Source: a plasmid. From it: DNA of 64,000 bases. The stretch lies in NCBI RefSeq assembly GCF_988243305.1, contig NZ_OZ547138.1. The stretch is one strand, 5' to 3'. Of the stretch, positions 6,225-61,041 are shown piece by piece (the stretch's first letter is position 1; each line of letters begins with the position of its first letter). Both the position numbers and the translations under genes were made by a program. The notes under the pieces were generated by a model that was given only the letters and a program-made list of their open reading frames with translations, did not search any database and was not told the origin of the DNA.

Positions 6225-6995
6225 ATGAACGAAACGCTGAATGCACTGATTTATCGCCACGCCAGCAACCTGCTGCTGGCGCAGGGCTGGCCGGAAGAGA
6301 CGGATGTTGACCAGCGTAATCCGAAGTATCCGGGCTGGATCAGCATTTACGTGCGGCTGGATGTGCCCCGGCTGGCGACGTTACTTATCAACCGTCACGG
6401 CGGCGTACTGCCGCCGCTCCTGGCCTCCGCCATTCAGAAACTGACCGGAACCGGGGCGGAACTGGTACTGTCCGGCAGTCAGTGGCAGTCGCTGCCGGTA
6501 CTTCCGGCAGACGGAACACAGGTGTTTTTCCCGTATGCCGGAGAATGGCTGACCGAAGACGAAATCAGGGCAGTTCTTGATGCAGTGCGCAATGCAGTAC
6601 GAAGCATCTGTTACCAAGTGGCAGAAGATGCCCGGCGTATCCGGGCGGCGCTGACCACCACCGGTCAGACGTTGCTGACCCGCCAGACGCGCCGCTTTCG
6701 TCTGGTTGTGAAGGAAAGCGATTACCCCTGCTGGCTTGATGAAGATGACGAAAATCTGCCCGTGGTGCTCGATGCCATTCTGAACCGTGGCGCTCGTTTT
6801 TCGTCGGTGGAAATGTATCTGGTCAGTGAGTGTGTGGAGCATATCCTGTCCAGTGGGCTGGCCTGCGATGTGCTGCGTATACCTGATGAACCGTCCCGTC
6901 GCTGGTTTGACCGGGATATTCTGCGGGAGGTGGTCCTGGAAGCCCGGACTGAAATCCGCAGCATGGCGGATGCACTGGCGAAAATCCGGAAATGA
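6225..6995 (+). CDS. Hypothetical leading-region protein
   Basis: 256-aa ORF in the same orientation as neighbours. Confidence 0.45.
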
Positions 6996-7051: not shown

Positions 7052-7390
7052 GGATGTCGCCGCAGGCTCCGCTTTACCCGGCCATGCGGGGCATGGCCTT
7101 GTGGGTTTTCAGTTATGTGGCCTCAGCGTCGTGTGCGGGCTGTGCCGTGCCTCCATCGTAGCCGGGCTTCTGCGGGCGGGTTGCAAGGTAAGGTGAACCG
7201 CTGCGGTCACCCGGTCCCTCCTTCCCGTCTGCCGTGATTTTCCGGTCGTTCACCCGCTCAGATTTCGCGGTCTCACCCTCCAACTCCCGTCAGCCGTGCG
7301 CGTCAGGCTGCGGCTTCCCTTGCGCCCTTGCAACCCTGCAGGTCCGGCAAAGATGGAGGCACGGCACCGCCCGGTGTCGCGGAATATGTG
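7052..7390. repeat. Structured GC-rich repeat, family A copy 1 (ssi/Frpo-like candidate single-strand promoter) upstream of klcA
   Basis: About 340 bp near-identical to 14001-14340; both end just upstream of an antirestriction gene start. Confidence 0.6.
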
Positions 7391-8693: not shown

Positions 8694-9200
8694 ACTTCGG
8701 CTCCCGGCTGCCTGGCGGCATCCGGTCGTCAGGCCCGACTCCGACGGGCAGCTGCTGGCGCACCCGCCAGTCTCCGCCGAACCCGCTGGCGCGGTTTCGG
8801 GCTGCCGCTACGGTCCGATGCGTGAAAACCCGGCTTGCAGCGACCGTTCCGGTCGCGCCGCCCCTGTCGCGCCGTGACCTGCGCTCCCTGCACACCTGAC
8901 GGTGTGTGAGGAAACTGCGCCTGATGGCGCAGCAGTCCTCCCTCCTGCCGCCACTCCTGCGGCCTGTTTCCCGCTGTGGACTTTCCGGGGGGCAGACGTA
9001 ACCCCCTCCCGTTCCATCTGTCCAGGGTGAGATGCACCGGCCACAAAATTTTTAGCCATGAACCCGGCAAAAAATTTTGCGTCCGCCCCCGGACAGCTGC
9101 CCCGTGAGGCGGTAAACGGGCCCCCATCGGAAAGGTCCACTGCGGGGAGAAAACCCTGTGAAGTGGACGGCAGGAGGAGCTTTCGCTCCTCTGAAGGGGC
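8694..9200. repeat. Structured GC-rich repeat, family B copy 1 (ssi/Frpo-like) upstream of ssb
   Basis: About 500 bp homologous to 15041-15545 and, in part, 18071-18395. Confidence 0.6.
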
Positions 9201-9260
9201 ACATGAACGTCCCGTCGCCGGTATCCGGTTTATCTCACATCTTTCAGTCAGGAGGTTCTT

Positions 9261-14000: not shown

Positions 14001-14340
14001 GAAGTCGCCGGCGGCTCCGCTTTTACCCGGCCATGCGGGGCATGGCCTTGTGGGTTTTCAGTTATGTGGCCGCCGTGTCGTGTGCGGGCTGTGCCGTGCC
14101 TCCATCGTAGCCGGGCTTCTGCGGGCGGGATGCAAGGTAAGATGAACCGCTGCGGTCACCCGGTCCCTCCTTCCCGTCTGCCGTGATTTTCCGGTCGTTC
14201 ACCCGCTCAGATTTCGCGGTCTCACCCTCCAACTCCCGTCAGCCGTGCGCGTCGGGCTGCGGCTTTCCTTGCGCCCTTGCATCCCTGCAGGCCCGGCAAA
14301 GATGGAGGCACGGCACCGCCCGGTGTCGCAGAACATGTGA
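14001..14340. repeat. Structured GC-rich repeat, family A copy 2 (ssi/Frpo-like) upstream of ardA
   Basis: Near-identical to 7052-7390. Confidence 0.6.
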
Positions 14341-14858: not shown

Positions 14859-15040
14859 TTTACTCCCCCGCTCCGGCGGGGGTATGGCCTGCCAGGCCGC
14901 CGGAAAACCCTGGCAGGCTTACGCCTGCCTGAAATGCAGGAGGGCCGCGCCTGCGGCGCTGCCCTTCCTGCCCGTCATGGTGTGAGGCATTTTTCTGTTA
15001 TGTCGTTTCTGTTGTTCTGATTTCCGGAGGCGGGGACACC

Positions 15041-15545
15041 TTCGGCTCCCGGCTGCCTGGCGGCATCCGGTCGTCAGGCCCGACTCCGACAGGCAGCTGC
15101 TGGCGCACCCGCCAGTCTCCGCCGAACCCGCTGGCGCGGTTTCGGGCTGCCGCTACGGTCCGATGTCTGAAAAACCAGGCTTGCAGCGACCGTTCCGGTC
15201 GCGCCGCCTCTGTCGCGCCGTGACCTGCGCTCCCTGCACACCTGACGGTGTGTAAGGAAACTGCGCCTGATGGCGCAGTTGTCTGCCCTTCCGCCGCCAC
15301 CCCTGCGGCCTGTTTCCCGCTGTGGACTTTCCGGGGGCTGAAGCGGCCACAACACGTGTCAGCCGTCCAGGGGGGAGATGTACCAGCCACAAAACTTTTT
15401 GCCGCAAGCGTCAAAAACTTTTGCGTCTGCCCCCGGACAACTGCCCCGTGCCGTGGCTGTCGCTGCCCCATCGGAAAGGTCCACTGCGGGGAGAAACCCC
15501 GAAGAAGTGGACGGCAGAAGGGGCTTTCGCCCCTCCGGGGGAGCA
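15041..15545. repeat. Structured GC-rich repeat, family B copy 2 (ssi/Frpo-like)
   Basis: Homologous to 8694-9200. Confidence 0.6.
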
Positions 15546-15589
15546 ACCGGTCGGCCCGGCGACCTGATTCAGCAGAAGGAGACGTTTTC

Positions 15590-17389: not shown

Positions 17390-17413
17390 TCCAGCAGGAG
17401 CAGAGCAAACAGT

Positions 17414-17584
17414 ATGACGCTTGCAGAACGTCTTATACAGAAAGGTTTTGAAAAAGGCGCTCTTGAAGTGGCGCGGGAAATAGCCTGTCGGCTTCGGGAT
17501 ATGGGCTGGCCGCCGAAACGGATTCAGGAGGCTACCGGACTTTCCGGTGAAGAACTGAAAAAACTGTTTCCTGATGAGCAGTAG
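17414..17584 (+). CDS. Small protein homologous to the Rpn C-terminal domain (free-standing RpnS-like candidate)
   Basis: 56 aa from ATG 17414 (CAGGAG RBS); MTLAERLIQKG..GALEVAREIACRLRDMGWPPKRIQEATGLSGEELKKL aligns with the Rpn tail TIAERLEQKG..GALEKALAIACQLQKMGMTPEQIKQATGLSDDELKKI. Confidence 0.45.
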   Translation: MTLAERLIQKGFEKGALEVAREIACRLRDMGWPPKRIQEATGLSGEELKKLFPDEQ

Positions 17585-17614
17585 CCTGGCATTCAGCCAG
17601 GCTGTGAATCACGC

Positions 17615-17866
17615 TCACACATCCTCTGCCGTTTCCCCCAGTTCATTTTCCAGACGCCTGATGATATCTGCCTTACGCATCCCCTGCATGTGAGGCAGCA
17701 GGTCACGGACTGAAAGAGCCTGGGTGGTCCTCCAGACGGTGACGTCCACCTGTTCCGCATTTTCCCAGGCGTGCCATGTTCTCTGCGTCACGCCAAATTC
17801 TCTGGCCGCTTTTTCGCGTGACCAGAGCATGCTTTTTCGCCAGATTCGCAGTTCCCAGTCGGTCAT
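17615..17866 (-). CDS. Small HTH (XRE-like) DNA-binding protein
   Basis: 83 aa; segment LWSREKAAREFGVTQRTWHAWE resembles an HTH; palindromic operators in its upstream region. Confidence 0.5.
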   Translation of the reverse strand: MTDWELRIWRKSMLWSREKAAREFGVTQRTWHAWENAEQVDVTVWRTTQALSVRDLLPHMQGMRKADIIRRLENELGETAEDV

Positions 17867-17880
17867 AAAATACCTTTGAA

Positions 17881-17968
17881 AAAGTGAAAAAACTTCACTT
17901 TATTTTATCACCATAATCACCAAATCAGCGCGAAAAATAAGTGTGAAAAAGTGAAGAAATTTCACTTT
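17881..17968. promoter_or_regulatory. Two palindromic operator-like sites AAAGTGAA-N5-TTCACTTT (17881-17901 and 17948-17968)
   Basis: Two near-identical 21-bp palindromes 67 bp apart in an AT-rich intergenic region upstream of the HTH gene. Confidence 0.4.
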
Positions 17969-18070
17969 TTTTAATTGCAGATGTCGTGCTGTTTTCTCTG
18001 TTTTCACCTGTGCGGGAGTGGTGTGCCAGTGACCACCACATGCCATTGTTGTGCCGTCGTTTTTCTTCAG

Positions 18071-18395
18071 TCGCGCCGGATGCGGCGCTCCCTGCACACC
18101 TGACGGTGTGTAAGGCCACTGCGCCTGATGGCGCAGCTGTCTCTGCCTGTCTGCCGCCGCACTGCGGCCTGTTCTCCGCAGACGGACTTTCCGGGGGAAC
18201 ATACACGACCACATCCCGTTTCAGTTATCCAGGGGAGAGATGTACCAGCCACAAAACTTTTTGCCGCAGGCGTCAAAAACTTTTGCGTCTGCCCCCGGAC
18301 AACTGCCCCGTGACGTGGTGAGCATCCCCCGTCGGAAAGGTCCACTGCGGGGAAATCCCCGAAGACCCGGACGGCAGAAGGAGCTTCGCTCCTCC
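18071..18395. repeat. Structured GC-rich repeat, family B copy 3 (partial; ssi/Frpo-like)
   Basis: Homologous to the right-hand 330 bp of 8694-9200 and 15041-15545. Confidence 0.55.
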
Positions 18396-18442
18396 GGGAA
18401 ATGACCTGGCTGACCCGGCAGTCGTGACGATGAGGAGACAAT

Positions 18443-19294
18443 GTGATGAATCAGACTTTACCCACTGCTGACCTGAATACTGCCGGCACGACAGATATTA
18501 TTCCGTCTGTGGCCATCGACCGCATTATCGCGCAGCGTAACGAAGGTATTGCACTGTTCATGCAGGCGATGGAATGCCTGGCGACAGCACGCAGGATTCT
18601 GCTCGATGCTTCTGGTGACATTTTTCTCTACGGGTTTGAAGACTGCGTGACTGACTCTGTTCGATGCATGGATAAACCGGAAGAAGCAAAAAAGAATATC
18701 ACCCGTCTTGCCGACCGTAAAATCTGGGACCGCCTGATGGCGGATACGGGGATGTACACCTTCATGAGTTCATGCCAGCGTGATGAGTGGAACAGCCAGC
18801 TGATGAGCGACACCTGTCCTGAAATCACCCTGGACAATGTGCTGGCAACTTTTCGCCATCTGAATGCCAGCAAGATGCAGACATTTGAACAGAGACTGAT
18901 TGATGTCTACCGGAAATTGTCATGGGATTACAGAACCAATAATCCCTGCCGTCTGGGCAAGAAAATCATTATTGAAAACCTGCTGTACCGCTGGAGTAAC
19001 GGGCGTGTGACGCTGGACTGCAGCGGACGGGAGGCACTGGATGACCTGGTACGTCCGTTTTATCTGCTGGAGGGACGCAACGTTCCTGACTTCAGGAACA
19101 GCATCGGGGCGCAGTATGGTGAATATCTCGGGAACGGCGATAATGTCGGTAAGCTGTTAGAAGGGGAATATTTTACGGTGCGTGGCTACCAGAAAGGGAC
19201 CGTACACATTGTCTTTAAGCGTCCTGACCTTGTTGAAAAACTGAATGATATTATTGCACGGCATTATCCTGGTGCATTGCCGCCACGAGTCTGA
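18443..19294 (+). CDS. Hypothetical protein directly downstream of an ssi-like element
   Basis: 283-aa ORF with GAGGAG RBS, followed by a terminator. Confidence 0.5.
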   Translation: MMNQTLPTADLNTAGTTDIIPSVAIDRIIAQRNEGIALFMQAMECLATARRILLDASGDIFLYGFEDCVTDSVRCMDKPEEAKKNITRLADRKIWDRLMADTGMYTFMSSCQRDEWNSQLMSDTCPEITLDNVLATFRHLNASKMQTFEQRLIDVYRKLSWDYRTNNPCRLGKKIIIENLLYRWSNGRVTLDCSGREALDDLVRPFYLLEGRNVPDFRNSIGAQYGEYLGNGDNVGKLLEGEYFTVRGYQKGTVHIVFKRPDLVEKLNDIIARHYPGALPPRV

Positions 19295-19304
19295 TTAAAC
19301 AGAA

Positions 19305-19336
19305 AAGCCCTGGTATTTATGCCGGGGCTTTTTTTC
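19305..19336 (+). terminator. Rho-independent terminator candidate
   Basis: Imperfect hairpin AGCCCTGG...CCGGGGCT followed by TTTTTTT. Confidence 0.5.
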
Positions 19337-19378
19337 TGTAATCATCATAATCTCAGAACACGATGTGACATTGTCACA

Positions 19379-19714
19379 TCAATTGTTGTTCATATCGATG
19401 CCATCTTTCCTGCCTGAATCTGTCTTTTTAGGTGCTGTTTTAGAGGAAGAACGGCGGGATGGTTTTTTCGATTCTGCTTCCCGAATAATGTCGCGAAGTG
19501 CTTTCTCTCCTACTTCATACCCTGCATTTTTGAGCGTGTCACGAACATCTGCCAGTGTATAACCCTTTGTCCTTACCAGGACAATGATGTCATCACGAAT
19601 GGCATCAAGAAAATCACGCAATGTTTTCCGTTGAGCGGTGAGGTCCGGCAATTCCGATAAGGCAGCTTTTGCCAGCTGGATGTCATCATCTGAGTAAAAT
19701 TTTTTAGAAGCCAT
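19379..19714 (-). CDS. Hypothetical protein with basic Ser/Lys-rich C-terminal tail, divergent from nikA next to oriT
   Basis: ATG 19714 (MASKKFYSDDDIQ) with GAGAGA RBS; 111 aa. Confidence 0.45.
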   Translation of the reverse strand: MASKKFYSDDDIQLAKAALSELPDLTAQRKTLRDFLDAIRDDIIVLVRTKGYTLADVRDTLKNAGYEVGEKALRDIIREAESKKPSRRSSSKTAPKKTDSGRKDGIDMNNN

Positions 19715-19769
19715 TGGCACTTTCTCTCTGTTTTATGTTGAAGCCTGATTTTATCACCAAAACTGCCTC

Positions 19770-19935
19770 CTGGCAGGGCTGCGCCCTGCCTCTGCCGTCT
19801 GCATAAGACTATGATGCACAAAAATAACAGGCTATAATTGACCGAAAAACGGGACAGGATGTGGGAATGTCGGACCGCGCACGCGCACTCAGACATTCCC
19901 CACCTGGTCAGGGCTTTGCCCCGACACCCCGGTAA
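19770..19935 (-). other. oriT: Origin of transfer (oriT) region with inverted repeats; nick predicted on the minus strand
   Basis: Intergenic region immediately upstream of nikA-nikB; inverted repeats GGCAGGGC-tgc-GCCCTGCC (19783-19801) and GGAATGTC...GACATTCC (19864-19900); sequence resembles my recollection of the R64 nick region. Confidence 0.5.
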
Positions 19936-19945
19936 GGAGCAGACC

Positions 19946-20278
19946 ATGAGTGAGAAGAAAACCCGAACGGGCAGTGAGAACAGGAAGAGAATTGTAAAAT
20001 TCACGGCGAGATTCACGGAGGATGAGGCTGAAATCGTAAGAGAAAAAGCGGAGTCAAGTGGACAGACGGTTTCAACATTTATACGAAGTTCTTCACTGGA
20101 TAAGGTGGTTAACTGCCGTACTGACGACCGTATGATTGATGAGATTATGCGTCTTGGCCGCCTTCAGAAGCATCTGTTTGTGGAGGGAAAACGCACTGGT
20201 GATAAGGAGTATGCAGAGGTTCTTGTTGCCATTACTGAATATGTCAATGCTCTGCGAAGAGACTTAATGGGACGCTGA
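19946..20278 (+). CDS. nikA: Relaxosome accessory protein NikA (RHH, oriT binding)
   Basis: 110 aa MSEKKTRTGSENRKRIVKFTARFTEDEAEIV with AAGGAG RBS; directly upstream of the relaxase. Confidence 0.9.
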   Translation: MSEKKTRTGSENRKRIVKFTARFTEDEAEIVREKAESSGQTVSTFIRSSSLDKVVNCRTDDRMIDEIMRLGRLQKHLFVEGKRTGDKEYAEVLVAITEYVNALRRDLMGR

Positions 20279-20289
20279 GATAACTGCTG

Positions 20290-23001
20290 ATGAATGCCAT
20301 TATTCCGCACAAAAGACGTGACGGCAGGTCTTCCTTTGAAGACCTGATTGCGTACACGTCTGTGCGGGATGATGTGCAGGAAAATGAGCTCACAGAAGAC
20401 AGCGAAATCAAGAGTGATGTCCCTCACCGCAACCGTTTCAGACGGCTTGTTGATTATGCAACACGCCTGCGTAACGAAAAATTTGTCTCCCTGATTGATG
20501 TGATGAAGGACGGCAGTCAGTGGGTAAATTTCTATGGCGTAACCTGTTTCCATAACTGCAATTCACTGGAAACAGCTGCTGAAGAGATGCAGTACAAGGC
20601 GGACAAAGCTGTTTTTTCCCGTAATGATACAGACCCCGTTTTCCACTACATTCTTTCCTGGCCTGCGCATGAAAGCCCGCGTCCTGAGCAGCTTTTTGAC
20701 TGTGTGCGTCACACACTGAAATCTCTTGAACTCTCAAAACATCAGTACGTGGCTGCCGTTCATACGGACACGGATAATCTGCATGTGCATGTTGCCGTGA
20801 ATCGTGTACATCCTGAAACTGGTTATATTAACTGGCTTTCCTGGAGCCAGGAAAAACTCAGCCGTGCATGTCGTGAACTTGAACTTAAGCACGGATTCGC
20901 GCCTGATAATGGCTGCTTTGTGCATGCACCCGGCAACCGTATTGTGCGCAAAACAGCGCTGGTACGTGAGCGCCGTAATGCCTGGCGACGCGGGAAAAAG
21001 CAGACGTTCAGGGAATATATTGCGCAGATGTCGATTGCCGGGCTGCGTGAAGAGCCCGCACAAGACTGGTTGTCTTTGCATAAACGGCTGGCCAGTGATG
21101 GTCTGTATATCACGATGCAGGAAGGGGAACTGGTGGTGAAGGATGGCTGGGACAGAGCGCGGGAAGGTGTTGCACTCAGTTCGTTCGGACCGTCATGGAC
21201 AGCTGAAAAACTGGGGCGGAAACTGGGGGAATATCAGCCTGTACCGACAGATATTTTCAGTCAGGTGGGGACACCCGGTCGTTATGATCCGGAAGCCATA
21301 AACGTTGATATCCGGCCGGAAAAAGTGGCAGAAACGGAGAGTCTGAAACAGTACGCCTGCCGTCATTTTGCCGAACGCTTACCGGAAATGGCGAGAAATG
21401 GTGAGCTGGAAAGTTGCCTGGATGTGCACAGAACTCTGGCAAAGGCTGGATTATGGATGGGGATCCAGCACGGGCATCTGGTACTGCATGATGGATTTGA
21501 TAAACAACAGACACCAGTACGTGCAGACAGTGTGTGGCCGTTAATGACGCTGGATTATATGCAGGATCTGGATGGTGGATGGCAGCCTGTACCGAAGGAT
21601 ATTTTTACTCAGGTTATACCCGGAGAACGATTCCGGGGACGTAATCTTGGTACTCAGGCTGTCAGTGATTACGAATGGTATCGTATTCGGATGGGGACAG
21701 GTCCACAGGGAGCAATAAAGCGCGAACTGTTTTCCGATAAGGAAAGTCTGTGGGGGTACACGACTGTTCAGTGTGAGTCGTTGATTGAAGATATGATCGC
21801 GGGCGGGAATTTCAGCTGGCAGGCGTGCCATGAGATGTTTGCGCGTAAAGGGCTTATGTTGCAGAAACAGCATCATGGTCTTGTGATTGTGGATGCGTTT
21901 AATCATGAGCTCACACCAGTGAAGGCCAGCAGTATCCACCCGGATTTGACGTTATCCAGGGCTGAGCCGCAGGCAGGGCCATTTGAGATTGCAGGTGCAG
22001 ATATATTTGAACGGGTGAAGCCTGAATGTCGCTACAATCCGGAACTTGCTGCCAGCGATGAAGTGGAGCTCGGCTTCCGGCGCGATCCTGTACTGCGTCG
22101 TGAACGCCGTGAAGCCCGTGCAGCTGCGCGGGAAGATTTGCGCGCGCGTTATCTTGCATGGAAGGAGCACTGGCGTAAACCCGACTTACGTTACGGAGAA
22201 CGGTTACGGGAAATTCATGCTGCCTGCCGTCGGCGCAAGGCGTATATCCGTGTGCAGTTCCGGGATCCACAATTGCGTAAGCTGCATTACCATATTGCAG
22301 AAGTGCAGCGTATGCAGGCGCTGATCAGGCTGAAGGAGAGTGTGAAGGAAGAGCGGTTGTCACTGATTGCGGAGGGTAAGTGGTATCCTTTGTCCTACCG
22401 GCAGTGGGTGGAGCAACAGGCGGTACAGGGAGACAGAGCTGCATTATCACAGTTACGTGGCTGGGATTATCGTGATCGTCGCAAAGACAAGCGACGAACA
22501 ACGAATGCCGACCGCTGCGTGATTCTCTGTGAACCGGGAGGAACTCCACTTTATGAAGACACTGGCGTTCTCGAAGCCCGTCTGCAGAAAGATGGCAGTG
22601 TGCGTTTTCGTGATCGGAGGAATGGCGAGTTAGTCTGTGTGGATTATGGGGACCGTGTGGTGTTCTACCATCATCAGGACAGAAATGAACTGGTGGATAA
22701 GCTGAATCTGATTGCTCCTGTATTGTTTGATCGTGAGCCAAGAATGGGTTTTGAACCGGAAGGCTCATATCAACAGTTTAATGATGTATTTGCGGAAATG
22801 GTGGCCTGGCATAATGCAGCTGGAATAACCGGAAGTGGACACTTTGTAATCAGCCGCCCGGATGTGGATTTACATCGTCAGCGTAGTGAACAGTACTACC
22901 ACGAATATATCAGGCAACAGAAAAGCATATCCGGGGGGCATGGCGCATCTTATGCTCCAGTTCAGGATAATGAGTGGACGCCACCATCACCTGGAATGTA
23001 G
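20290..23001 (+). CDS. nikB: MOBP-family relaxase NikB
   Basis: 903-aa ORF with relaxase histidine motif HVHVAVNRVHPETG; nikA-nikB organisation typical of IncI-complex plasmids. Confidence 0.9.
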   Translation: MNAIIPHKRRDGRSSFEDLIAYTSVRDDVQENELTEDSEIKSDVPHRNRFRRLVDYATRLRNEKFVSLIDVMKDGSQWVNFYGVTCFHNCNSLETAAEEMQYKADKAVFSRNDTDPVFHYILSWPAHESPRPEQLFDCVRHTLKSLELSKHQYVAAVHTDTDNLHVHVAVNRVHPETGYINWLSWSQEKLSRACRELELKHGFAPDNGCFVHAPGNRIVRKTALVRERRNAWRRGKKQTFREYIAQMSIAGLREEPAQDWLSLHKRLASDGLYITMQEGELVVKDGWDRAREGVALSSFGPSWTAEKLGRKLGEYQPVPTDIFSQVGTPGRYDPEAINVDIRPEKVAETESLKQYACRHFAERLPEMARNGELESCLDVHRTLAKAGLWMGIQHGHLVLHDGFDKQQTPVRADSVWPLMTLDYMQDLDGGWQPVPKDIFTQVIPGERFRGRNLGTQAVSDYEWYRIRMGTGPQGAIKRELFSDKESLWGYTTVQCESLIEDMIAGGNFSWQACHEMFARKGLMLQKQHHGLVIVDAFNHELTPVKASSIHPDLTLSRAEPQAGPFEIAGADIFERVKPECRYNPELAASDEVELGFRRDPVLRRERREARAAAREDLRARYLAWKEHWRKPDLRYGERLREIHAACRRRKAYIRVQFRDPQLRKLHYHIAEVQRMQALIRLKESVKEERLSLIAEGKWYPLSYRQWVEQQAVQGDRAALSQLRGWDYRDRRKDKRRTTNADRCVILCEPGGTPLYEDTGVLEARLQKDGSVRFRDRRNGELVCVDYGDRVVFYHHQDRNELVDKLNLIAPVLFDREPRMGFEPEGSYQQFNDVFAEMVAWHNAAGITGSGHFVISRPDVDLHRQRSEQYYHEYIRQQKSISGGHGASYAPVQDNEWTPPSPGM

Positions 23002-23055: not shown

Positions 23056-23104
23056 CTCTGACAGAGCTATGGTACTGAGATCTATATGGATTGAGGAGCA
23101 ATAT

Positions 23105-23500
23105 ATGGGGGTAAAGAAAATCGTTATGCTGGCTATTTTAGTCAGCTTTGTGGCGGGATGTGCGCCATTACATCCTTCAAATTGCCATAAAACTACAGCC
23201 CTGGGTAGTTGCAGTTCAGGACGTTGGGATGATCAGGATGAATGGGGGGAGCAAGCACGGGGAATCAGGGATGCAATTAATGCTAAACTTGATGATCCGC
23301 AAAAATGGAAAAGGAAAAAATGCAGGTTGCATATGGAATTCTCCCGGGATGGCACGGCGTTAAAAATATCAACCAGTAATGGCGATAAAGCCTATTGCGA
23401 AGCGATAAAGTCAGCAGCCCATAAAGCTAAATTCCCGGCCTTCAACAATCCGGAAGTTTATAGAGATTTTCAAAAATCCGGCTTTGACATGCGCGGTTAG
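23105..23500 (+). CDS. Putative lipoprotein
   Basis: Internal start MGVKKIVMLAILVSFVAGC gives a signal peptide with lipobox VAGC. Confidence 0.55.
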   Translation: MGVKKIVMLAILVSFVAGCAPLHPSNCHKTTALGSCSSGRWDDQDEWGEQARGIRDAINAKLDDPQKWKRKKCRLHMEFSRDGTALKISTSNGDKAYCEAIKSAAHKAKFPAFNNPEVYRDFQKSGFDMRG

Positions 23501-23812: not shown

Positions 23813-24042
23813 GTTTGTGTTTGGCACGATCTGGCAACGGGAGGAAGCGCCAAGCACCGTTTGAGCATGGCATTAAAGCTGGTATTATGGTTTGGCGATG
23901 CCATGATTGATGCCGATACCATGCTGCGTTCTTTTGTGTGTTCATGGTATTAATATTCTATAAGTTACTGTTTCGTAAGAAAAAATACGATAAATTCGAG
24001 ATTTTTTCAGCATGGTATCGGAGACGAAGAAGGACAAGGTAC

Positions 24043-24591
24043 ATGCTGACCGATACCAAGCTGCGCAATCTCAAGCCCAGGGACAAACTCTACAAAGTGA
24101 ATGACCGGGAAGGTCTCTATGTGGCAGTGACTCCAGCCGGCTCCATCTCGTTCCGTTACAACTACTCAATCAACGGTCGGCAGGAGACCATCACCTTTGG
24201 GCGTTATGGTGTCGGTGGCATCACCCTGGCCGAAGCCCGCGAGCTGTTGGGTGACGCCAAGAAGATGGTTGCGGCGGGCAAGTCGCCGGCCAAGGAGAAA
24301 GCCCGAGACAAGGCGCGGGTGAAAGATGCAGAGACGTTCGGTGCCTGGGCGGAGAAGTGGCTGCGTGGCTACCAGATGGCCGACTCCACCCGCGATATGC
24401 GCCGCTCGGTTTATGAGCGTGAGCTGAAGCCGAAATTCAGCAATCAGAAGCTGGTGGAGATCACCCACGAAGACTTGCGGGCGCTGGCTGATGCCATTGT
24501 TGAGCGAGGCGCACCGGCCACCGCCGTTCATGTGCGTGAAATCGTGTTGCAGGTATTTCGCTGGGCCATCGAGCGTGGGCAGAAGGTCGAA
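24043..24591 (+). pseudogene. int: N-terminal fragment of a P4-like tyrosine integrase, truncated by IS26
   Basis: MLTDTKLRNLKPRDKLYKVNDREGLYVAVTPAGSISFRYNY is a typical integrase arm-binding N-terminus; the frame runs into the IS26 terminal repeat at 24592. Confidence 0.6.
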
Positions 24592-25411
24592 GGCACTGTT
24601 GCAAATAGTCGGTGGTGATAAACTTATCATCCCCTTTTGCTGATGGAGCTGCACATGAACCCATTCAAAGGCCGGCATTTTCAGCGTGACATCATTCTGT
24701 GGGCCGTACGCTGGTACTGCAAATACGGCATCAGTTACCGTGAGCTGCAGGAGATGCTGGCTGAACGCGGAGTGAATGTCGATCACTCCACGATTTACCG
24801 CTGGGTTCAGCGTTATGCGCCTGAAATGGAAAAACGGCTGCGCTGGTACTGGCGTAACCCTTCCGATCTTTGCCCGTGGCACATGGATGAAACCTACGTG
24901 AAGGTCAATGGCCGCTGGGCGTATCTGTACCGGGCCGTCGACAGCCGGGGCCGCACTGTCGATTTTTATCTCTCCTCCCGTCGTAACAGCAAAGCTGCAT
25001 ACCGGTTTCTGGGTAAAATCCTCAACAACGTGAAGAAGTGGCAGATCCCGCGATTCATCAACACGGATAAAGCGCCCGCCTATGGTCGCGCGCTTGCTCT
25101 GCTCAAACGCGAAGGCCGGTGCCCGTCTGACGTTGAACACCGACAGATTAAGTACCGGAACAACGTGATTGAATGCGATCATGGCAAACTGAAACGGATA
25201 ATCGGCGCCACGCTGGGATTTAAATCCATGAAGACGGCTTACGCCACCATCAAAGGTATTGAGGTGATGCGTGCACTACGCAAAGGCCAGGCCTCAGCAT
25301 TTTATTATGGTGATCCCCTGGGCGAAATGCGCCTGGTAAGCAGAGTTTTTGAAATGTAAGGCCTTTGAATAAGACAAAAGGCTGCCTCATCGCTAACTTT
25401 GCAACAGTGCC
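24592..25411 (+). mobile_element. IS26: IS26 (820 bp) copy 1
   Basis: 14-bp terminal inverted repeats GGCACTGTTGCAAA (24592) and TTTGCAACAGTGCC (25411); no 8-bp target duplication. Confidence 0.95.
24655..25359 (+). CDS. tnpA: IS26 transposase Tnp26
   Basis: 234 aa MNPFKGRHFQRDIILWAVRWYCKYGISYRELQEM. Confidence 0.95.
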   Translation: MNPFKGRHFQRDIILWAVRWYCKYGISYRELQEMLAERGVNVDHSTIYRWVQRYAPEMEKRLRWYWRNPSDLCPWHMDETYVKVNGRWAYLYRAVDSRGRTVDFYLSSRRNSKAAYRFLGKILNNVKKWQIPRFINTDKAPAYGRALALLKREGRCPSDVEHRQIKYRNNVIECDHGKLKRIIGATLGFKSMKTAYATIKGIEVMRALRKGQASAFYYGDPLGEMRLVSRVFEM

Positions 25412-34001: not shown

Positions 34002-34475
34002 TTAGCCTTTTTTCCAAATCTGGTATGTATAATTTATATTAGACATAAAAAACTGTTCAAAAACCAAATTGAAATTCTCAGGCATTATAGGGAATTTGAT
34101 ATCACCTTCGACTTCAACGTGAACAGTAGACAAATGAATTATATCTGCTTTTTCAATAAGGCTATTATAGATTTGACCCCCGCCAGAGACATATACATGA
34201 TCTGTAACTTTTGATAGCTCTTTCAAAGCATTTTCTATTGAAGGAAAAACTAGGACGTTTTCATTTGAGCTTGAAATTCCGTTCTTTGACACTACTGCAT
34301 ATTTGCGATTTGGAAGAACACCCATAGAGTCAAATGTTTTTCTTCCGACAAGGAGCCATTGATTATATGTGAGCGCTTTAAAGAGTAGTTGCTCACCTTT
34401 TACTGACCACGGGATATCAGGACCACTACCGATTACGCCATTTTCTGACACTGCAGAAATCAATGATATTTTCAA
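34002..34475 (-). CDS. dfrA17: Trimethoprim-resistant dihydrofolate reductase, dfrA17-type
   Basis: 157 aa from [23 protein letters not shown]; first cassette next to attI1. Confidence 0.85.
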
Positions 34476-34632
34476 TTTAACTCCCTTAATGGCTAACTTT
34501 GTTTTAGGGCGACTGCCCTGCTGCGTAACATCGTTGCTGCTCCATAACATCAAACATCGACCCACGGCGTAACGCGCTTGCTGCTTGGATGCCCGAGGCA
34601 TAGACTGTACAAAAAAACAGTCATAACAAGCC
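34476..34632 (-). other. attI1: attI1 integration site region of the class 1 integron
   Basis: Region between the intI1 start and the first cassette. Confidence 0.6.
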
Positions 34633-57163: not shown

Positions 57164-57262
57164 CGCAAAAAAACCGACTGGTGAGGCCGGTTTTTTTGCG
57201 ATTCCGGATCGAAGTTGGTAGCCCTGACCGGAAGATAACTGCCTATAACTGACTATGAAATA
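57164..57262 (-). ncRNA. Candidate antisense antitoxin small RNA 2 (predicted, type I TA unit 2)
   Basis: Minus-strand promoter-like TTGCAG-17-TATTAT near 57285-57315, segment 57221-57252 matching the toxin-2 5' UTR motif (57410-57441), hairpin plus T-run 57166-57197. Confidence 0.35.
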
Positions 57263-60566: not shown

Positions 60567-60747
60567 GATGTGTCCTTGTTTTTTATTATTTTGCATTTCA
60601 GAAAATAACACGATGCCTGCAGCCCGGAAAACAGATGTGTGCACACGTAGTCACTTTCCGGCTTTATTTCTGTCCCTGACACAAAATACGTGGTGGCATG
60701 AAAAGGATTGTGGCGGACAGGAAAACGATTAGAATAGCGGCGGGCGC

Positions 60748-61041
60748 TTGAGGCTGTATGCCGAAAGCGTTTTGTGGACGGCATGTAGCAGAAAGCCCCA
60801 GGCGATTTTTTTATCAATCAACCCAGGGCCCACTGTAATGCCTAGACAACATTATAGTAGCCCGATGACGGCCGAAAGGCAATGGAGGGGCTGCGATGCC
60901 ACAACGAACGTTTTTAATGATGTTAATCGTCGTCTGTGTGACGATACTGTGTTTTGTCTGGATGGTGAGGGATTCGCTTTGCGGATTTCGTATCGAGCAG
61001 GGAAATACGGTGTTTGTGGCAACGTTAGCCTACGAAGTTAA
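60748..61041 (+). CDS. pndC: Candidate PndC (mok-like frame overlapping pndA; true start uncertain)
   Basis: ORF overlapping pndA in another frame, as in hok/mok-type loci. Confidence 0.35.
   Translation: MRLYAESVLWTACSRKPQAIFLSINPGPTVMPRQHYSSPMTAERQWRGCDATTNVFNDVNRRLCDDTVFCLDGEGFALRISYRAGKYGVCGNVSLRS

Follow-up and report, generated by a model that had tools for sequence, protein, structure and literature searches.

Sequence anatomy of a B/O/K/Z-type origin of transfer with a predicted minus-strand nick in an IncI-complex resistance plasmid

The intergenic region upstream of nikA carries several inverted repeats at positions 19770-19935, which raises the question of which of them belong to an origin of transfer (oriT), where and on which strand the plasmid is nicked, and which genes enter the recipient first. 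We addressed this within a window of 64,000 nucleotides, the whole stretch of plasmid DNA that was analyzed. The interval very probably represents the ordinary oriT of an IncI-complex conjugative resistance plasmid with a NikAB relaxosome of the B/O/K/Z type. It lies between a divergent yggA-like gene (minus strand, start at 19714) and nikA/nikB (nikA ATG at 19946), and the features of the region are as follows.

19379-19714, minus strand: yggA-like gene, the first gene on the leading side, divergent from nikAB
19748-19776, minus strand: candidate promoter of the yggA-like gene, with −35 CTGCCA, a 17-nt spacer and extended −10 TGaTAAAAT (promoter scan)
19772-19790, no strand assigned: palindrome GGCAGGGC-tgc-GCCCTGCC, with a perfect 8-bp stem (19772-19779/19783-19790)
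19833-19838, plus strand: TATAAT, candidate −10 box of nikAB
19851-19863, minus strand: nick region CACATCCTG|TCCC; nick predicted at G19855|T19854
19863-19900, minus strand: long ('17-bp', 17/18-bp) inverted repeat, arms 19900-19883 and 19880-19863
19907-19925, minus strand: 8-bp inverted repeat GTCGGGGC-aaa-GCCCTGAC, which reads GTCAGGGC-ttt-GCCCCGAC on the plus strand
19946-20278, plus strand: nikA, ribbon-helix-helix relaxosome accessory protein (110 aa)
20290-23001, plus strand: nikB, MOBP relaxase (903 aa)

A database comparison of 251 bases around the interval gave matches in 2,767 plasmid records, which typing identifies as conjugative with a MOBP relaxase and MPF_I. Identity was at least 99% in 21 of these records, 95-99% in about 380 (IncK2/Z-type plasmids, such as pCP55-141k and pSFE059) and 80-90% in about 1,700 (IncI1-type plasmids, including R64). 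The plasmid closest to the host plasmid of the window is p1-S1-KEN-03-A, a 126-kb E. coli plasmid with an IncI-gamma/K1 replicon that is 99.8% identical over positions 18001-43000. The prediction of an oriT at this place holds up, as the interval aligns with the R64 oriT between yggA and nikA and is 100% identical to IncZ plasmid pO26-CRL125 over a stretch that starts at the nikA ATG, takes in both repeats and the nick, and ends at nick+10. The oriT is thus already known, because pO26-CRL125 carries the same copy, annotated earlier against R64 as part of the description of an 85-bp oriT for IncZ pO26-CRL125 and IncB p3521 (PMC3817090). The NikA protein of pO26-CRL125 is also identical (WP_001291058.1), and the 8 differences between the two plasmids (7 substitutions and a 1-nt indel) are located further into the leading side, with none in the oriT core.

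The two relaxosome genes adjoin the predicted nick, read away from it and are intact as judged from their sequences. NikA matches the Pfam NikA-like (E = 3.4e-19) and NCBIfam MobA (E = 4.6e-31) models, and its N-terminus matches PDB 2BA3, the solved R64 NikA(1-51). NikA is 60% identical to R64 NikA, with most of the differences in the DNA-binding N-terminus. NikB matches Pfam Relaxase (PF03432, E = 5.3e-30) and NCBIfam TraI_MobP_relax (E = 2.9e-120), is 72% identical to R64 NikB and conserves the His-triad motif HTDTDNLHVHV; nikB was found to be essential in the cluster-2 plasmid pMS7163B (PMC10286972). The putative nikAB −10 box, TATAAT, is invariant in seven large plasmids, including the diverged ones, and absent from small oriT-only plasmids. 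No good −35 element was found for this candidate promoter, and the promoter scan did not call the TATAAT at 19833-19838. Directly downstream of nikB, as in other B/O/K/Z-type plasmids, a gene at 23069-23500 (plus strand) has a product of 143 aa that contains a TolA C-terminal domain (Pfam E = 5e-14). This gene is missing there in R64, where trbC directly follows nikB.

The consensus for MOBP nick sites is (C/T)ATCCTG(C/T), cut as YATCCTG|Y (PMC3772185), and the minus strand at 19861-19854 reads CATCCTGT. The octamer alone is not diagnostic: YATCCTGY has 17 occurrences in the window, more than in any of 100 shuffles (7.9 ± 2.7 per shuffle). Only the site at 19854-19861 has an oriT context. The 12-mer CACATCCTGTCC at 19863-19852 (minus strand) is unique in the window, identical in R64 and invariant among ten aligned oriTs. 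It starts straight after the long inverted repeat, whose nick-proximal arm ends 8 nt 5′ of the predicted nick after G19855, the intervening 8 nt being ACATCCTG. The proposed likeness to the R64 nick region, for which an R64 alignment had been suggested as the check, is borne out by ACATCCTGTCCCGTTTTTCGG, a stretch of 21 nt at the nick that is identical in R64 and the window. Furuya & Komano reportedly mapped the R64 nick in 1991 to a G|T bond 8 bp from the 17-bp repeat. Combining this mapping with the MOBP consensus, we predict that the cleaved bond is G19855|T19854, in which case the transferred strand would start with T19854 at its 5′ end. Another nick-like sequence, CATATCCTGTCC (6840-6851, plus strand), has no inverted repeat next to it and was dismissed as a chance match or part of a coding sequence.

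On the minus strand the 8-bp inverted repeat (19925-19907) is followed by the long inverted repeat (19900-19863) and then by the nick region ACATCCTG|TCCC. The minus strand from 19935 to 19760 folds with −41.4 kcal/mol (z = −5.25), a stability reached by 0 of 200 shuffles. The long inverted repeat has 18-nt arms (19863-19880/19883-19900) that are complementary at 15 of 18 positions (83%) and separated by a 2-nt gap. Repeats of this kind (18-nt arms, at least 15 matches, loop of up to 6 nt) number 6 in the 64-kb window and 0.11 per dinucleotide shuffle, so the long inverted repeat is far beyond chance expectation. A scan of 19300-20300 at the Rfam gathering threshold gave no match. Both of the repeats named in the original prediction are present in the intergenic space upstream of nikA. 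They are not nested, as had been proposed, but lie side by side: GGCAGGGC/GCCCTGCC and GGAATGTC/GACATTCC are 72 bp apart, on either side of the predicted nick, and GGAATGTC (19864-19871) and GACATTCC (19892-19899) form the inner part of the long inverted repeat. The true 8-bp inverted repeat at 19907-19925, the counterpart of the R64 '8-bp repeat', had been overlooked.

To follow the conservation of these elements we aligned ten oriT cores, from IncK2/Z, IncI-gamma, IncI1, IncX1 mobilisable and Citrobacter pasteurii plasmids and from four small relaxase-less plasmids. The motifs CACATCCTGTCC and GGGTGTC(G)GGGC...GCC(C)TGACCAG show essentially no variation, and the 8-bp inverted repeat is invariant in sequence, including its G.T position. 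The long inverted repeat is conserved in its pairing: 7 of 19 pairs are changed on both sides (compensatory changes), 93-95% of cells pair (30-44% after the partner has been shifted 1-3 columns), and the covariation score was reached by 0 of 500 shuffles. The nick-proximal arm (19880-19863) is presumed to be the NikA binding site and the counterpart of R64 'repeat A', which is named as required for transfer (PMC4743918). The long-repeat arms and the N-terminal beta-strand region of NikA (KRIVKFTARFT here, QKTVVRTLRFS in R64, QKTILRAVRFS in IncI-gamma) vary in parallel among plasmids, as would be expected for a NikA site in the proximal arm. This covariation suggests that NikA would bind the diverged arm.

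R64 and ColIb-P9 (IncI1) share the order of 8-bp inverted repeat, long inverted repeat, 8-nt spacer, nick and leading region, and R64 has identical 8-bp arms, as reported for the IncZ oriT (PMC3817090), and the same nikA-nikB layout and yggA neighbor. The following sequence features of an R64-type oriT are found in the window: a nick region, a long inverted repeat, a distal 8-bp inverted repeat, nikA/nikB and a leading region templated by the transferred strand. The long-repeat arms of R64 differ at about half of their positions with the pairing kept (GGGGAATGTCTGAGTG here, GCAATTGTAATAGCG in R64). As the arms differ and NikA is 60% identical, the locus is not IncI1 in the strict sense, and sequence comparison places it in the B/O/K/Z type, probably with a NikA/repeat specificity distinct from that of R64. 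Identity to R64 changes sharply at the oriT, at about 19800-19900, from 95-99% over 17400-19700 to 55-77% from the long repeat through nikAB. This mosaic junction fits with recombination at or near oriT, and NikB-dependent oriT-oriT recombination has been reported for R64 (PMC5714925).

More distant systems share parts of the arrangement. RP4 (IncP, TraJ/TraI) has in common the ATCCTG core with similar flanks (TTCACCTATCCTGCCCGG in RP4, TTCCCACATCCTGTCCCG here), an inverted repeat just 5′ of the nick, and genes for a small accessory protein and a relaxase that read away from the nick; the relaxase here matches the TraI/MobA(P) model. Unlike RP4, the window has a relaxase of a different subfamily, unrelated repeat sequences, MPF_I rather than MPF_T, and no evident TraK-type leader operon. 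In the IncM plasmid pCTX-M3 (31429-31779) the order is GTCGGGGC-tt-GCCCTGAC, an 18-nt inverted repeat and then ACATCTTGTCCCG, with identical 8-bp arms and a nick motif that carries one C-to-T change (CTTG for CCTG). A divergent YggA homologue, Orf35 (35% identical), is likewise found on its leading side, and its nikAB genes are fused to the tra operon (PMC6112013).

Small oriT-only plasmids (pEC156-type and Col(MG828) plasmids of 1.5-1.8 kb) carry the equivalent of 19846-19931, that is the nick region, the long inverted repeat with arms of their own and the 8-bp inverted repeat, and they lack nikAB, the TATAAT and the leading-side palindrome. The relaxase-less carriers that we found include plasmids of 1.78 kb from S. 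sonnei, 1.55 kb from E. coli and 2.5 kb from Enterobacter, and one of 15 kb. A 93-bp R64-like oriT makes pEC156 mobilisable by R64 (PMC4743918). The 1.78-kb plasmid of Shigella sonnei has a nick-proximal arm that matches the B/O/K/Z type exactly and a distal arm that is off at one position, which suggests that this plasmid is tuned to the B/O/K/Z type of NikA rather than to that of R64. The assignment of the locus to the B/O/K/Z rather than the R64 specificity type matters for predicting which small oriT-only plasmids are mobilised.

The palindrome GGCAGGGC-tgc-GCCCTGCC had also been taken for an oriT repeat. It is positioned 65-83 nt 3′ of the predicted nick on the transferred strand, on the leading side, and falls outside the 19846-19931 block that the oriT-only plasmids conserve. 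Perfect 8-bp hairpins with loops of 2-6 nt are frequent in the window (45, against 6.5 per 64 kb by chance), so the hairpin is unremarkable alone and takes its significance only from conservation with compensatory changes. In the seven large plasmids 98% of its cells are paired, with two compensatory pairs (arms GGCAGGAC/GTCCTGCC in pN16S065 and GGCAGTGC/GCACTGCC in the C. pasteurii plasmid), while the S. salamae plasmid has one T.G wobble and R64 a 1-nt deletion in one arm. The flanks of the palindrome are diverged in the S. salamae and C. pasteurii plasmids, and the adjoining upstream GACGGCA is invariant. The hairpin is absent from the small relaxase-less plasmids, whose matches cover only 19846-19931. 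These plasmids, together with the mobilisation of pEC156 through 93 bp, place the palindrome outside the minimal cis-acting origin.

The right arm of the palindrome overlaps the CTGCCA of the candidate yggA-like promoter, and in the alignment of the seven large plasmids both CTGCCA and the extended −10 element TGnTAnnAT are invariant columns. A search for further GGCAG..CTGCC palindromes in the window, which could have indicated a regulon, returned only degenerate matches with 1-2 mismatches, near chance level. The corresponding intergenic region of pCTX-M3 lacks a GGCAG...CTGCC palindrome; it has GGCAG direct repeats only, and the spacer of the orf35 promoter holds another, unlike palindrome. 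We also considered and rejected an intrinsic terminator; the sole candidate is the minus-strand sequence CTGCC-agga-GGCAG+TTTT, which is weak, and R64, pN16S065 and the C. pasteurii plasmid do not conserve it.

The yggA-like protein is 98% identical to R64 YggA and 32-35% identical to pCTX-M3 Orf35. It has no match in Pfam, NCBIfam or PDB even at E = 10, and its AlphaFold single-sequence model is all-helical with low confidence (pLDDT 64). Deletion of orf35 in pCTX-M3 raised nikA, nikB and traH transcripts 40-, 23- and 80-fold, respectively, and mobilisation more than 200-fold (PMC6112013), the behavior of a repressor of nikAB-tra in IncM. By analogy, the yggA-like gene probably encodes a regulator of nikAB. 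RefSeq labels it 'molybdopterin-guanine dinucleotide biosynthesis protein MobC', which looks like a misnomer.

The strand that is transferred determines which side of the nick leads. On the low-coordinate side, the yggA-like gene is followed by genes for DUF4942 and Rpn proteins, ardA (at about 5 kb), psiAB, a ParB-like gene, ssb (at about 10 kb), a klcA-like gene and a methylase gene. According to the annotation of the collinear pCP55-141k, the ssb, psiB, psiA, ardA, klcA-like and methylase genes are all on the plus strand. With a minus transferred strand, this lower-coordinate side would enter first and nikA/nikB last, and the plus-strand leading genes would be templated by the incoming strand, in line with the single-stranded-promoter model and the general rule proposed for the polarity of leading-region anti-defence genes (PMC11541004). 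In the IncI1 plasmid pESBL, six single-stranded promoters have been mapped and the order of transfer has been shown (PMC12672017). The leading region here contains two repeat families that match the pESBL single-stranded promoters of classes 1 and 2. One consists of three Frpo/ssi-like intergenic copies (8695-9217, 15040-15561 and 18206-18318), and the minus strand of 18060-18445 forms a long Frpo/ssi-like hairpin (z = −8.0). The other comprises two 300-nt copies with 97% identity (7073-7372 and 14022-14321), upstream of the klcA-like gene and ardA. Two of the leading-region repeat copies have tips that are inverted repeats with 18-nt arms.

Three other readings of the locus have to be weighed against this evidence. 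It is unlikely that the GGCAGGGC-tgc-GCCCTGCC hairpin functions as an arm of oriT, for instance as a duplicate of the 8-bp repeat that works together with it in relaxosome assembly or resealing, although this reading has points in its favor. The pattern GTCRGGGCNNNGCCCYGAC, with up to 2 mismatches, finds only the palindrome and the 8-bp inverted repeat in 64 kb (0.14 expected), and 13 of 16 arm positions are alike; diverged plasmids preserve the hairpin through compensatory changes, and the T.G wobble in S. salamae fits a hairpin formed in single-stranded DNA. However, the oriT-only plasmids do without the hairpin, pEC156 is mobilised by R64 through its 93-bp oriT, and the hairpin of R64 itself has a deletion in one arm. 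In pN16S065 and the C. pasteurii plasmid, moreover, the hairpin drifts and the 8-bp inverted repeat does not, so that the likeness of the two, real in the window, is lost there and they are not maintained as a pair. The palindrome thus most likely stands outside the oriT machinery and belongs to the divergent yggA/nikAB promoter region. That it acts there as a regulatory site is the reading we favor, at slightly less than even odds. We hold a little more tentatively that it may be an uncharacterised functional element, either an operator for nikAB bound by the YggA family or a hairpin in the first ~80 nt of the transferred strand; no description of a function for it was found in the literature that we searched.

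The two remaining alternatives dispute the nick itself. The repeats could be only operators, promoters or 5′-UTR structures of nikA and yggA, with the true nick elsewhere on the plasmid. The invariant TATAAT at 19833-19838 and the candidate yggA promoter do lie within the interval, and autoregulation is common among ribbon-helix-helix accessory proteins and is seen with MobC of RA3 (PMC4175270). Yet experiments on R64-type plasmids have defined this very block as their oriT, and deletion of a 121-bp oriT abolished transfer of pESBL (PMC7602700). Plasmids of 1.5-2.5 kb without nik genes carry the block, where a nikA operator would have no purpose, and no other exact copy of the nick 12-mer is present in the window. 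Regulation and nicking are, moreover, not mutually exclusive. We consider a purely regulatory role very improbable. Still less probable is a nick at this place on the plus strand, with nikAB leading and the ssb/psiB/ardA region last to enter. We found no support for it beyond the symmetry of inverted repeats, which would in principle permit folding on either strand. The conserved motif at the site reads only on the minus strand, and a minus-strand nick has the repeats on its 5′ side, which is the arrangement of RP4 and R64. Were the plus strand nicked, the incoming strand would not be the template of the anti-restriction, SOS-inhibition and ssb genes, and these would come at the wrong end; the general rule (PMC11541004) and the order of transfer shown for pESBL (PMC12672017) both speak against this. 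The proposal that the minus strand is transferred toward coordinate 1 therefore agrees with both the orientation of the MOBP consensus and the plus-strand leading-region genes at lower coordinates.

With a minus-strand nick at oriT, transfer would proceed as follows, by extension from R64 and RP4. In the donor, a ribbon-helix-helix dimer of NikA would bind the nick-proximal arm (19880-19863) and so place NikB, the relaxase, on the conserved nick region next to it. NikB would then cut the minus strand after the G of CATCCTG (19855/19854) and stay covalently attached to the 5′ end, T19854, while the minus strand is unwound and exported 5′ to 3′ toward coordinate 1. The yggA-like gene and then the ardA/psiAB/ssb leading region would be the first to arrive, and nikBA the last. 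In the recipient, the plus-strand leading genes may be transcribed off the incoming minus strand from single-stranded hairpin promoters. As the round closes, the long repeat and the 8-bp repeat, situated just 5′ of the nick sequence, would come in, fold, and aid NikB in recognizing and resealing the site. The bond that is cleaved, the binding of NikA and the part of the repeats in termination are in this scheme modeled on R64 and RP4; the analysis itself shows the anatomy of the sequence, its homology and covariation, and that the genes are intact.

For annotation, the value of the analysis is a nick placed on the minus strand at 19855|19854. From this position, 20 kb with anti-restriction, SOS-inhibition and ssb genes would enter the recipient first, and the ~27-kb resistance region beyond nikB would enter late. 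Relative to pCP55-141k, this multiresistance region is an insertion at approximately 23734-50991, between the TolA C-terminal-domain gene downstream of nikB and trbC. It contains IS26, mph(A)-mrx-mphR, IS6100, chrA, sul1-qacEdelta1-aadA5-dfrA17-intI1, TnAs1 and tet(A), with an Rfam match to attI/AAC_AAD_leader at 34462-34543. An ORF at 23938-24618 looks, from its translation alone, like an N-terminal fragment of a P4-type integrase. Further along the window, Rfam models match a sok antitoxin RNA at 60742-60898 (plus strand, 125.6 bits) and an AgrB antisense RNA at 57165-57252 (minus strand, 47.7 bits), which presumably mark type I toxin-antitoxin loci of the transfer region, of the pnd/hok-sok type and DinQ-like, respectively.
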